Virus record (IMG/VR): IMGVR_UViG_3300023246_000127
Span: 1-37,476 of that record
DNA: 37,476 bases
Source: a virus
Taxonomy: Duplodnaviria > Caudoviricetes
Reading direction: 5' to 3' (one strand)
Below the pieces are notes generated by a model. That model did no database searches and was not told the origin of the DNA. It worked only from the letters and a program-made list of their open reading frames with translations. This document shows, one piece after another, positions 1,634-24,161 of the stretch. How positions within the stretch are numbered: position 1 is the stretch's first letter; each line of letters opens with the position of its first letter. The translations under genes and the position numbers were made by a program.

Positions 1634-1662
1634 TTGACTTTTGTTTAATAACTTTGTACAAT
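1634..1662 (+). promoter_or_regulatory. Sigma70-type early promoter
   Basis: TTGACT (1634-1639), 17-nt spacer, TACAAT (1657-1662), with an AT-rich upstream region, in the intergenic gap before the early genes. Confidence 0.8.
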
Positions 1663-1716
1663 ATAGAAGCAACGAAAGAAAGAGAAATAAAGAACGGACA
1701 ACTAAATGACACAATC

Positions 1717-1813
1717 GGGTTTGGGTGAGCAAATTCTAAATAATAGGACAATCGGTGAGGATTGTTTTTTCATTTGCCCCTGTATATCGAACTCACCTTC
1801 GGTTGCAGGGGTA
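1717..1813 (+). ncRNA. Structured early leader: three hairpins with complementary 6-nt loops
   Basis: Hairpins 1717-1736 (loop GGUGAG), 1745-1768 (loop GGUGAG, followed by a U-run) and 1775-1813 (loop CUCACC). Several G-U pairs favour + strand RNA. Confidence 0.65.
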
Positions 1814-1832
1814 TTTAATTTAAGGAGGAATC

Positions 1833-1970
1833 ATGGTAAACTTTGATTATGTAAGTGATGATGCGTTGGCTCAAGAAGCGGACAGGATTAGCGATGAACA
1901 CATTGCTGAGAAGGCACGGAGTGAGTATGAGAACGAGTTTTTATCTTGCGGAGAGGAGGAAGGGGAATGA
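1833..1970 (+). CDS. Small, very acidic protein (45 aa), first early gene
   Basis: AAGGAGG RBS; MVNFDYVSDDALAQEADRISDEHIAEKARSEYENEFLSCGEEEGE; ATGA-coupled to the next ORF. Below the ORF-track cutoff. Confidence 0.75.
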   Translation: MVNFDYVSDDALAQEADRISDEHIAEKARSEYENEFLSCGEEEGE

Positions 1971-2605: not shown

Positions 2606-2705
2606 CAAAGGAAACGCAAGAAATAGTTCGGTTGATATGGGTAGACATAGTAAAGATGCAGGAAGGGAAGATGAAGTCAAATAATGTAGTGAAGGGGTGC
2701 AAATA

Positions 2706-3671
2706 ATGTGTCAATTTATAAGTTTTTTCCATAACCCATTAAATGGGGATATCGCAGTAAATGACTTAAATTCTCATGGCAATACAGAAACGGAGTTGAA
2801 ATTGAATAAAAACATCTGGAGAGAAGGTCATTATCTTCCTAATGGTGGGGTAGAGTTGCGTTTTAATCCCGACGACATTACACCAGAAAACTATGAAGAA
2901 CATTTTAAAAATAGATTTCCCACGTTCATTGATTTCTTTAATTATTGCATTATGTCAACGAATTCAAAAGAAACATTTGGTGGTTACCTCGACTTGGACG
3001 GGCTTACGAGTGCAAAGGGATTGGTGCTACCGAAGAGTGTTGGTGGTTCCATCGACTTGAGCGGGCTTACGAGTGCAAAGGGATTGGTGCTACCGAAGAG
3101 TGTAGGTGGTTACCTCGACTTGGACGGGCTTACGAGTGCAAAGGGATTGGTGCTACCGAAGAGTGTTGGTGGTTCCCTCTACTTGAGAGGGCTTACGAGT
3201 GCAAAGGGATTGGTGCTACCGAAGAGTGTAGGTCGTTCCCTCGACTTGAGCGGGCTTACGAGTGCAAAGGGATTGGTGCTACCGAAGAGTGTAGGTGGTT
3301 CCCTCGACTTGGACGGGCTTACGAGTGCAAAGGGATTGGTGCTACCGAAGAGTGTAGGTCGTTCCCTCGACTTGAGCGGGCTTACGAGTGCAAAGGTATT
3401 GGTGCTACCGAAGAGTGTAGGTGGTTACCTCGACTTGAGCGGGCTTACGAGTGCAAAGGGATTGGTGCTACCGAAGAGTGTAGGTGGTTACCTCGACTTG
3501 AGAGGGCTTACGAGTGCAAAGGGATTGGTGCTACCGAAGAGTGTTGGTGGTTCCCTCGACTTGAGCGGGCTTACGAGTGCAAAGGGATTGGTGCTACCGA
3601 AGAGTGTAGGTCGTTCCCTCGACTTGAACTATAATGTAAGAGCGGAGTATGAAAAACTTAAGGAGGTATAA
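2706..3671 (+). CDS. LRR-like repeat protein with ten 21-aa repeats
   Basis: Repeat GG[YS]LDL[DSR]GLTSAKGLVLPKSV; likely start ATG 2706 (MCQFISFF) inside the 2697 ORF. Confidence 0.85.
   Translation: MCQFISFFHNPLNGDIAVNDLNSHGNTETELKLNKNIWREGHYLPNGGVELRFNPDDITPENYEEHFKNRFPTFIDFFNYCIMSTNSKETFGGYLDLDGLTSAKGLVLPKSVGGSIDLSGLTSAKGLVLPKSVGGYLDLDGLTSAKGLVLPKSVGGSLYLRGLTSAKGLVLPKSVGRSLDLSGLTSAKGLVLPKSVGGSLDLDGLTSAKGLVLPKSVGRSLDLSGLTSAKVLVLPKSVGGYLDLSGLTSAKGLVLPKSVGGYLDLRGLTSAKGLVLPKSVGGSLDLSGLTSAKGLVLPKSVGRSLDLNYNVRAEYEKLKEV
2979..3626 (+). repeat. 63-bp tandem repeat, 10 full copies plus a partial copy
   Basis: Near-identical unit ggtggttccctcgacttgagcgggcttacgagtgcaaagggattggtgctaccgaagagtgt[at]. 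Confidence 0.97.
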
Positions 3672-5629: not shown

Positions 5630-5653
5630 GCCCCGGCTCCCCCCGGTCGGGGC
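5630..5653 (+). terminator. GC-rich hairpin after the recombination genes
   Basis: gccccggc / gtcggggc stem with a C-rich loop, followed by ttaattt (weak U-tract). Confidence 0.5.
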
Positions 5654-6804: not shown

Positions 6805-7069
6805 TGTTTTGAAGGTTGTAAAAAAGATAAAAAAGACTGATTATTTTTATGCCTTAAACCAAAAATGTGTAGAAATAATAGTAATAGAAAAAGCAATAAA
6901 CGCAATACCCTCTACCGAGAGGAAGGTGGATAGGTGCAAATTTACTCAAGTAGCTGGGAACCATGTATTCGACACAGGGTGTGGACATAGAGTGCAAGGC
7001 CACAATTTTAGTCATTGTCCTTACTGTGGGAAAGAAATAGCCGAAGCTATTGAGGGGGATAAATGTTAA
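6779..7069 (+). CDS. Phage hypothetical protein with C-terminal Zn ribbon
   Basis: DLIxRxDV N-terminus; CGH...FSHCPYCG; AGGAG RBS. Confidence 0.7.
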   Translation: MKDLIARGDVLKVVKKIKKTDYFYALNQKCVEIIVIEKAINAIPSTERKVDRCKFTQVAGNHVFDTGCGHRVQGHNFSHCPYCGKEIAEAIEGDKC

Positions 7070-7779
7070 GAACAATAACAAAAGATGAGTTAAAGATTAT
7101 TTTGGACAATCACACTTTGTGGTTGAATAATAAAGGTGGGAGTAAAGCTAACCTACGCTTTGCTAACCTAAGCTCTGCTAACCTACGCTCTGCTAACCTA
7201 AGCTATGCTAACCTACGCTCTGCTAACCTAAGCTTTGCTAACCTAAGCTTTGCTAACCTAAGCTCTGCTGACCTACTCTCTGCTAACCTAAGCTATGCTA
7301 ACCTACGCTTTGCTAACCTAAGCTCTGCTAACCTACGCTCTGCTAACCTACGCTCTGCTGACCTAAGCTTTGCTAACCTACGCTATGCTGACCTAAGCTC
7401 TGCTAACCTAAGCTTTGCTAACCTAAGCTCTGCTGACCTAAGCTCTGCTAACCTAAGCTATGCTAACCTACGCTTTGCTGACCTAAGCTCTGCTAACCTA
7501 CGCTATGCTGACCTAAGCTCTGCTAACCTAAGCTTTGCTAACCTAAGCTCTGCTGACCTAAGCTCTGCTGACCTTGATAAAAAATATGTTCAAATATCTT
7601 GTATAGGAAGTAGAAAAGGAATAACTACTTATTGCATAGACGATGATTTTATATGGTGTGCGTGTTGGACTGGCAACATAAAAGACTTTGAGAAAAGAGT
7701 AAGGGAAACACACAAAGAAAATAAACAATATCTTAAAGAGTATCTAGGTGCTATAAAGTATTTTAAGTCGTTAAAATAA
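7063..7779 (+). CDS. Pentapeptide-repeat protein
   Basis: ELKIILDNHxLWL...GxKANL N-cap, 28 A[ND]L[SRL][SFY] repeats, C-terminal IGSR...CACWTG..F domain. Confidence 0.92.
   Translation: MLRTITKDELKIILDNHTLWLNNKGGSKANLRFANLSSANLRSANLSYANLRSANLSFANLSFANLSSADLLSANLSYANLRFANLSSANLRSANLRSADLSFANLRYADLSSANLSFANLSSADLSSANLSYANLRFADLSSANLRYADLSSANLSFANLSSADLSSADLDKKYVQISCIGSRKGITTYCIDDDFIWCACWTGNIKDFEKRVRETHKENKQYLKEYLGAIKYFKSLK
7147..7575 (+). repeat. 15-bp tandem repeat, 28 copies plus a partial copy
   Basis: Unit gct[ag]accta[ac]gct[cta]t. Confidence 0.95.
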
Positions 7780-12156: not shown

Positions 12157-12757
12157 CATTCGCTATACCTCGGAGTGTTCGCTATGGCAATTCTACCGAT
12201 GCCGGGTATCATGCGGTGAAAATATATCTTAATGGCACGTTTGTACGTCATGTATAGTGAGCCGAAGTTATACACTACCATATTGAATGGCGAACCTGTT
12301 TCGGTGAAAAAATTGCCTATGGGATTTGACGGAGTGCCTTAATTAACGTAGTTTGGTAGCGGAGTTAGACTTATTTCTCTAGTTGATTGGGATTTAGGAT
12401 TAAGCTTACTACTCTTTAATCAGCAAACTATTAGGAGTAACAATGAAAGACAGTAAGGGTTGGCCATCAGCTATAAAAGACAAGGGTTACGATCCGAAGC
12501 GAAAAGAAAAAGGTCAAGATGCAAGGTAAATGTCCTCTCACCAAGAGGCAGAAGGTAAAAATGCGTAAAAGCATTGATAAGTTATGTAGTTTGATGTGTT
12601 GCTTTAACCTTGTAAGGAAGGTGTGTGGATAATGAACAAATTAAGTAAGAAAGATATAAAACTAGTTCGTGAAGCCATTAAAAGAATAGTTAAGGAATAT
12701 GGTGGGATATTAATTAGACTTGGAAGGGAATAATGCGTAAAATAGGAATAGAATCAA

Positions 12758-22680: not shown

Positions 22681-22687
22681 TTTAAAA

Positions 22688-22721
22688 GGGGAGGGGTAGG
22701 GTATCCTATCTCTCCCTATTT
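22688..22721 (+). terminator. Hairpin after the capsid gene
   Basis: gggaggggtagg-gtat-cctatctctccc followed by tattt. Confidence 0.7.
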
Positions 22722-24127: not shown

Positions 24128-24161
24128 GGTGAGGAGTATCTATAAAAGGGTACTCTTCACC
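24128..24161 (+). terminator. 14-bp stem-loop (terminator or mRNA stabiliser)
   Basis: ggtgaggagtatct / gggtactcttcacc. Confidence 0.65.

Follow-up and report, generated by a model that had tools for sequence, protein, structure and literature searches.

A conserved three-hairpin RNA with covarying, complementary loops ahead of the early genes of a tailed phage: a candidate transcription attenuator

Introduction

The antisense attenuator and incompatibility RNAs of plasmids such as pT181 and ColE1 act by loop-loop recognition, being encoded on the opposite strand and complementary throughout, and the C4 RNA of phages P1 and P7 is grouped with the CI RNA of phage P4 as phage antisense immunity RNA. 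According to PMC4825925, transcription is terminated when the P4 CI RNA pairs with two sites (seqA and seqC) in its own leader. For the guanidine-IV riboswitch, the accessible part of PMC7736828 presents a steric model, in which the linker is so short that a kissing contact keeps the outer pairs of the terminator from forming, and smFRET data in the portion of PMC11611296 available support that model, with growth of the terminator stem shortening the linker and hindering the kiss. Steering of termination by kissing geometry has so far been described for this one riboswitch class. The ANTAR target motif, in the available text of PMC8934654, carries A at position 1 and G at position 4 of the loop in both of its hexaloops, with the second hairpin overlapping the terminator stem.

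Here we analyse a stretch of 37,476 nt of phage DNA (the window), in which an earlier note had pointed to a leader with three hairpins ahead of the early genes and had proposed an RNA-based switch.

Results

Location of the element in the phage genome

The window comprises most of the genome of a tailed phage, with the main genes all on one strand. A second locus (L213) overlaps the last 280 nt of the window with one mismatch and then enters its start, giving a circle of ~39,324 bp (~39.3 kb). The three-hairpin element sits between a metallophosphoesterase gene, the last gene on the late side (ending at position 1584), and small early ORFs, the first of which (1833..1970, + strand) starts with the ATG at 1833, encodes 45 aa without a family match and is preceded by the ribosome-binding site AAGGAGG (1822..1828, + strand). 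Further small ORFs follow in the early operon, and after them come genes for a 258-aa protein without a family, a Cas4-like exonuclease, and NinG. One early ORF (2697-3671) contains about ten tandem copies of a 63-nt repeat, each unit coding for 21 aa, and a pentapeptide-repeat ORF lies at 7063-7779.

The 24 sequencing runs listed as containing the stretch are all labelled salt lake metagenome, and none of them is an RNA dataset. The hairpin stretch was covered by each of the four runs examined, with no alternative letter and no strain variation in the leader seen in these four, and L213 is identical to the window over the same stretch; because of this agreement, the three hairpins are no artefact of assembly.

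Three hairpins with complementary loops

All features of the element lie on the + strand. H1 (1717-1736) has 7 bp closing the loop GGUGAG at 1724-1729 and an energy of -4.1 kcal/mol, and H2 (1745-1768) has 9 bp, the same loop at 1754-1759 and an energy of -7.7 kcal/mol. H3 (1776-1812; -20.1 kcal/mol), the predicted intrinsic terminator, consists of a GC-rich base stem (GCCC/GGG) and an apical stem bearing the complementary loop CUCACC at 1792-1797. The 16-bp stem with one bulge previously ascribed to H3 is correct as to the bulged A, and folding gives 15 bp, the sixteenth being reached only when the pair U1775-A1813 is counted. An A-rich and largely unpaired segment (1668..1712) makes up the 5' part of the leader, and two short boxes form the 5' feet of H1 (AAUCGG, 1713..1718) and H2 (AAUAGGA, 1742..1748). 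The linker between H2 and H3 (1765..1775) includes a U6 run (1765-1770) that overlaps H2 and may be a pause site or weak terminator, and H3 is followed by the U-rich tail AUUUAAUUU (1813..1821), in which six of the nine letters are U.

Folding of 1660-1840 as a whole is not unusual (z -1.45). The individual pair probabilities in the window are 0.95-1.0 for H2 and 0.99 for H3, with H1 being marginal (0.13-0.78, depending on transcript length). The + strand of the window holds 12 copies of GGTGAG and two of CTCACC, of which only the three hairpin copies are closed by a stem of more than 1 bp, and a trio of two identical and one complementary hairpin loops was present in none of 2059 block-shuffled windows (stems of at least 4 bp, either strand). 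The only other CTCACC lies outside any hairpin loop, within a stretch of 538 nt without a long ORF (12220-12757) between the early and packaging genes.

In the window the H3 loop pairs with the upstream loop at all six positions (-8.0 kcal/mol, computed as a plain duplex) and, by inspection, the pairing extends into the stems by at most one G-U. Since it cannot enter the stems any further, it is a kissing contact and not the nucleation site of a long duplex. Each of the three stems includes G-U pairing when read as + strand RNA, and folding is less favourable for the - strand (-21.5 as compared with -35.8). The three-hairpin structure and the pairing between its loops are almost certainly real: the two GGUGAG hairpins, the complementary CUCACC hairpin, and their position ahead of the first early ribosome-binding site, as described in the earlier note, were all confirmed by sequence and folding, and its premise that any switch acts as RNA rather than DNA is backed by the + strand G-U pairs, the U-runs, and the varying arms.

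The three loops change in step in two homologous phages

Homologs were sought in 50 whole records of phages related by the 258-aa protein, the terminase, and the major capsid protein, using a covariance model (R1) built from the window sequence alone and holding no loop-loop term. Four matches with E ≤ 1 were obtained, two of them true members from distantly related uncultured phages (G001 and G040) and the other two covering flanks or one hairpin only. G001 (E 4e-8) has the capsid (68%), portal, and other virion genes in common with the window phage; G040 (E 0.2) has the 258-aa protein and the exonuclease in common with it and a different virion module.

The loops of H1, H2, and H3 are GGUGAG, GGUGAG, and CUCACC in the window, UGGUAG, UGGUAG, and CUACCA in G001, and GUGUGG, GUGUGG, and CCACAC in G040. 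The H1 loop equals the H2 loop and the H3 loop is their reverse complement in all three members, which differ pairwise at 3, 4, and 3 loop positions with every change matched in all three loops. As R1 held no term linking the loops, this covariation provides independent support, from three members, a number too small for statistics at the level of R-scape. The earlier note had put forward that H3 can kiss H1 or H2, to be judged from an alignment of homologous leaders, and in that alignment (n = 3) the loops do covary three ways. That they change in step suggests that selection maintains the ability of H1 and H2 alike to pair with a single terminator tip.

The stems covary as well, the closing pair of H2 being C-G, U-A, or A-U and its pairing being kept with different stem letters, while the apical stems of H3 have no sequence in common. 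Fixed in 3/3 members are the AAUCGG and AAUAGGA boxes, a UUYG-N6-CRAA core in H1, the six U after H2, GCCC at the base of H3, and a U-rich tail, with seven U in nine letters in both homologs; the 5' leader segment is also A-rich in both. The loops are spaced by 26-31 and 35-38 nt, and the distance from the core of H2 to the GCCC of H3 is 9-10 nt in all members. H3 has energies of -18.9 to -22.4 kcal/mol, and H1 is unstable in two of the three members and stable in G040. Loop duplexes amount to -6.4 to -8.0 kcal/mol within a phage and to -1.7 to -4.6 kcal/mol across phages. Between H3 and the first ribosome-binding site, G001 has a second hairpin that is branched and whose loops are rich in C (L452 1443-1490, minus strand).

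No integrase or repressor was recognised using PHROGs on 58 + 104 ORFs and Pfam on 29 + 101, most ORFs having no family, and no partition gene was recognised in the three phage genomes (window phage, G001, and G040). The absence of a repressor gene, previously remarked on for the window, thus extends to the closed genome and two relatives, with the exception of a weak 21-residue match to a transcriptional-regulator family (L213:921-1208, E 6.6e-4). A 124-aa protein (L213 1963-2337) with relatives in both homolog phages was the only one found in all three, and its G040 copy has a weak outer-membrane beta-barrel match.

Extent of the family

Pattern scans of viral contigs using the exact loops were empty because the loops vary among phages: none of 119 loci (48 of 64 parts) and none of 97 loci had all loops closed by stems of at least 5 bp. 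Searches with blastn, in which the window leader was compared with phages and plasmids and that of G001 with phages, returned short chance matches or none. R1 gave a meaningful score for the window only among 100 sequence sources, and a model of all three members (R2) gave one weak match in each of two sets of 50 records, neither of them a member; the R2 records are partly the same as those searched with R1, making 102 distinct viral records in all. Patterns based on the conserved boxes matched 2/78 and 2/91 loci, both times the same two homologs, and one of 29 loci in genome contigs. This locus, L636, has the same sequence as G001 (100% identity) and is a contig of 39,965 bp that was binned with Sulfurimonas, which is not taken as evidence of a host. 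A descriptor scan of 659 loci (3.3 Mb) yielded the three members and one unrelated repeat array only. In these searches the family therefore consists of three distinct sequences and is carried by 2 of the 102 related viral records, many of which are fragments.

Other structured sequences were encountered on the way. An unrelated viral contig (L070 1501-1583) contains a 33-nt sequence three times in direct orientation, each copy being a perfect inverted repeat, and a terminator-like hairpin with internal TGGTAG and CTACCA stands ahead of a replication-type gene at L538 1536-1590, which is not a three-loop member. A replication gene of a related phage is preceded by an intergenic stretch (L123 5464-5620) that looks structured, has arms like those of a tRNA, and matches no Rfam family.

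The Rfam 15 covariance models had no match at gathering score in the window, and positions 1585-1860 gave only three chance eukaryotic matches (E 1.6-7.1). Both homolog loci were without a match at E ≤ 1, so that the Infernal/Rfam search named in the earlier note as a check places neither the window nor its homologs in a family. No description of such a three-loop element was found in the literature, with nothing relevant in the accessible part of PMC8704770. The IMG/VR catalogue of 10,006 viral RNA candidates (PMC10690425) gave no match in three of its six supplementary files, its alignment archives being outside that search and a listing there being possible. This suggests that the element is uncatalogued, its distinctive feature being the duplicated and covarying upstream loop. 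Anti-Shine-Dalgarno mimicry by CUCACC and CsrA-type GGA loops were dropped as explanations because the loops change in the homologs.

H3 is the probable terminator

The earlier note had assigned the role of switched terminator to H2. This assignment is not supported, as the polymerase has already passed the U-run of H2 by the time H3 is transcribed, which leaves H3 no chance to act on it in cis, and the conserved GC base and U-rich tail are on H3. H2 is weak, yet six U follow it in all members. The base and tail of H3 read GCCC..GGG(U/C) followed by 6-7 U in 9 nt in 3/3 members, the tails beginning with A, AA, or UAA and that of the window being interrupted. A simple terminator scan called neither H2 nor H3 in the window, did not call H3 in G001, and in G040 called H2, on both strands, and not H3. 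Since the scan called H3 in no member, its role as a terminator is only inferred; judged by the conserved sequence features, H3 rather than H2 is probably the regulated intrinsic terminator. The next start codon follows H3 at 20, 89, and 31 nt in the window, G001, and G040, respectively, and with a distance so variable, control of transcription fits better than control of translation.

Strong GC hairpins with interrupted U-rich tails, followed directly by a ribosome-binding site in a layout like that of H3, are also found in the window at 5630-5653 (with a C6 loop), 22687-22717, and 24128-24160. A similar hairpin with a C-rich loop occurs in G040 (L537 19807-19836), with a G-run between it and the next start codon.

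Promoter and upstream sequence

A sigma-70-like promoter, TTGACT-17-TACAAT (1634..1662, + strand), has a predicted start at about 1668-1669, and the motif lies 50 nt downstream. The promoter previously described at this place is thus present in sequence, and as a match it is weak by itself because shuffled sequences give nearly as many promoter-like sites (15.1, as compared with 20 in 6 kb). G001 has TTGACA-17-AATAAT, accompanied by TG, and this site lies 52 nt before the motif. G040 has only a weak TTGAAA-17-AACTAT 47 nt before it and strong promoter-like sites ~550 nt upstream, and there a 176-aa ORF terminates at the foot of H1, which indicates that the element need not be a simple 5' leader in every phage.

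An AT-rich inverted repeat (1601-1627) just 5' of the -35 box is a possible operator or UP element and is weak as RNA (-1.8 kcal/mol). A 46-aa open frame (1706-1846) spans the whole motif in the window; its counterpart in G001 has 64 aa and ends by overlapping the first gene at an ATGA, and the G040 frame is open without a start. A leader peptide across the motif was set aside as a loose lead, with Shine-Dalgarno sites that are weak (-3.2 and -5.4, against a median of -8.8) and a frame expected in 23-39% of shuffles.

Discussion

A model for attenuation in cis

The conserved three-hairpin RNA may be a cotranscriptional attenuator, in which H2 would act as antiterminator and H1 would compete with it for the H3 loop; this is the explanation that we favour, and it seems to us about evenly poised between right and wrong. 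H1 and H2 would fold first, with the U6 run possibly pausing the polymerase, and the apical part of H3 would fold before the 3' arm of its base stem emerges. If the near hairpin, H2, kisses H3, the 9-10-nt linker would be too short for the base to close, the terminator could not zip up, and the early genes would be transcribed. If instead the far hairpin, H1, kisses H3, the tether would be long enough, the base stem would close, and an RNA of ~150 nt would be released. The choice between H1 and H2 would be a kinetic decision made while the base of H3 is transcribed. H1, as the least stable hairpin, would be the likeliest point of input, through a protein on the AAUCGG and AAUAGGA boxes, a ribosome, or leader RNA in trans.

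The geometry was assessed using a crude tether calculation (0.28 nm per pair, 0.63 nm per nucleotide, and 120-180 degrees at the kiss) that assumes near-coaxial stacking and a stiff H3, which bulges or internal loops could bend. Under these assumptions, the H2:H3 kiss with the base closed needs 6.7-8.1 nm and the linker provides 5.7-6.3 nm, whereas an open base permits the H2:H3 kiss and a closed base still permits that of H1:H3. The outcome is the same in all three members because the H2-H3 linker stays at 9-10 nt. Taken with the steric model of guanidine-IV, the calculation is what leads us to read H2 as the antiterminator and H1 as its competitor, although the two may have the opposite roles, or both may promote read-through. 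The energies count against attenuation in cis, the 6-bp loop duplex (-6.4 to -8.0 kcal/mol) being weaker than the whole of H3 (-19 to -22 kcal/mol), and as a consequence antitermination would have to be kinetic.

The element offers a small, fully specified natural test of how intrinsic termination is steered purely through the geometry of kissing loops, and of whether RNA is enough for a phage to control its early operon. Its three natural sets of hexamers are ready-made controls for compensation and orthogonality and useful parts for synthetic transcription switches.

Alternative explanations

The two-to-one ratio of the loops would be explained directly by RNA-only autorepression or immunity in trans, which could add to the input in cis or replace it and which we regard as a serious if rather unlikely possibility. 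A terminated RNA with two upstream loops and one complementary loop has one upstream loop to spare; with H1 holding its own H3, H2 would stay free to form a kiss with the tip of H3 on transcripts being made from other genome copies, or from a superinfecting sibling, and block their antiterminator. The product of termination would then promote termination, making a timer, a copy counter, or an immunity group defined by the hexamer. The near-orthogonality of the three hexamers, the lack of a recognised repressor in three genomes, and the precedent of the P4 CI RNA, which pairs with two sites of its own leader (PMC4825925, accessible part), favour this explanation, but random hexamers are mostly orthogonal anyway, so that their divergence need not mean selection, and no integrase or partition gene that would point to lysogeny was recognised in the three genomes. 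Moreover, the effective concentration in cis, ~1-2 mM in a crude model, would be difficult for an RNA in trans to exceed in the short time that transcription allows. A protein-free circuit along these lines, in which the RNA released at H3 forces termination on its own phage type, counts copies or co-infections, and excludes siblings, is similarly doubtful; if true, the terminator tip would carry, in its hexamer, a programmable immunity code. As no integrase or other sign of lysogeny was found, a timer or a copy counter in lytic growth is as plausible as immunity. The layout is also that of an ANTAR target, with two hexaloop hairpins ahead of a terminator (PMC8934654, accessible part), and a phage or host protein could bind the two hexaloops or the AAUCGG and AAUAGGA boxes, with the H3 tip masking the loops until it arrives. 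The invariance of both boxes beside varying loops agrees with such protein-controlled antitermination, which we nevertheless judge improbable: the only fixed loop letter is G at position 6, contrary to the ANTAR rule of A1 and G4, H2 does not overlap the terminator stem, and the only protein common to the three phages is small and has a weak outer-membrane beta-barrel match.

The promoter, the fixed spacing, and the two U-runs define short transcripts, so that the locus might instead produce an abundant stand-alone RNA of 100-150 nt ending at H2 or H3, with tips forming dimers or branched assemblies (as two-plus-one sticky ends can) or protecting it from decay, and with read-through set only by terminator leakiness. 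The variable distance from H3 to the start codon, which implies no fixed tie to translation, suits this explanation, but free assembly would need neither a linker kept at 9-10 nt nor a complementary loop on a terminator-like hairpin in all members, and no target of the loops occurs elsewhere in the genomes; we think it quite improbable. A translational switch, in which H1 opens and its arms pair with the ribosome-binding site, start, and first codons unless an H3 kiss keeps H1 closed and the site free, draws on an alternative fold that lies within 0-3.5 kcal/mol of the three-hairpin fold in the window and dominates at some lengths. The complementarity behind it is weak, being equalled in 2-5% of shuffles and 11-17% of other genome windows, and it is not kept in the homologs, where the alternative partner of H1 is the 5' end of the leader (G001) or H1 is stable (G040), making this switch very unlikely. 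Finally, the two direct and one inverted hexamer copies could be DNA-level sites, either operators or hairpin promoters, or a product of chance, and the short Watson-Crick cores do close on the - strand too. Arms that vary around centres held within each phage are, however, the opposite of an operator, the G-U pairs and U-runs favour + strand RNA, and the absence of the trio from all shuffled windows argues against chance, leaving these explanations hardly credible.

Comparison with known systems

The attenuator proposed here is like the guanidine-IV riboswitch (GGAM-1), as far as the accessible sources describe it, in that an upstream loop kisses the tip of the terminator hairpin across a short linker with no overlapping antiterminator sequence. 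It differs in having two identical upstream loops, in standing ahead of early genes, and in matching no Rfam model. The conserved kissing nucleotides and ligand pocket described in those sources are absent, the phage loops differing at 3-4 of 6 positions, and the genes downstream are small phage ORFs without a family rather than of the sugE type.

Like the P4 CI RNA, the element places one antisense sequence and two sites that match it in the same leader transcript. It does so in a phage for which no protein repressor was recognised, and the outcome proposed for it is again premature termination. The P4 analogy drawn in the earlier note therefore holds for this count of one antisense and two targets and not for the layout, since the P4 targets flank CI and here both sites are upstream of H3. 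CI is cut out of its transcript, whereas the antisense loop of the phage element sits on the predicted terminator itself, and all three partners here are 6-nt hairpin loops with pairing that stops at the stems; no further hairpin-loop copy was found downstream of H3 in the leaders. The likeness to ANTAR targets (on the accessible text) lies in two hexaloop hairpins ahead of an intrinsic terminator; in the phage element, A1 occurs in 0/3 members and G4 in 1/3, H2 and H3 fold together without overlap, the loops are complementary to the terminator tip, and the phages have no ANTAR protein. As in plasmids such as pT181 and ColE1, the loops vary in sequence from one element to another and might set specificity groups, but the phage element matches in its loops only, all on one strand. 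It belongs neither to the guanidine-IV class nor to the P4 CI RNAs nor to the ANTAR motif, and it resembles guanidine-IV in its geometry and P4 CI in its count.
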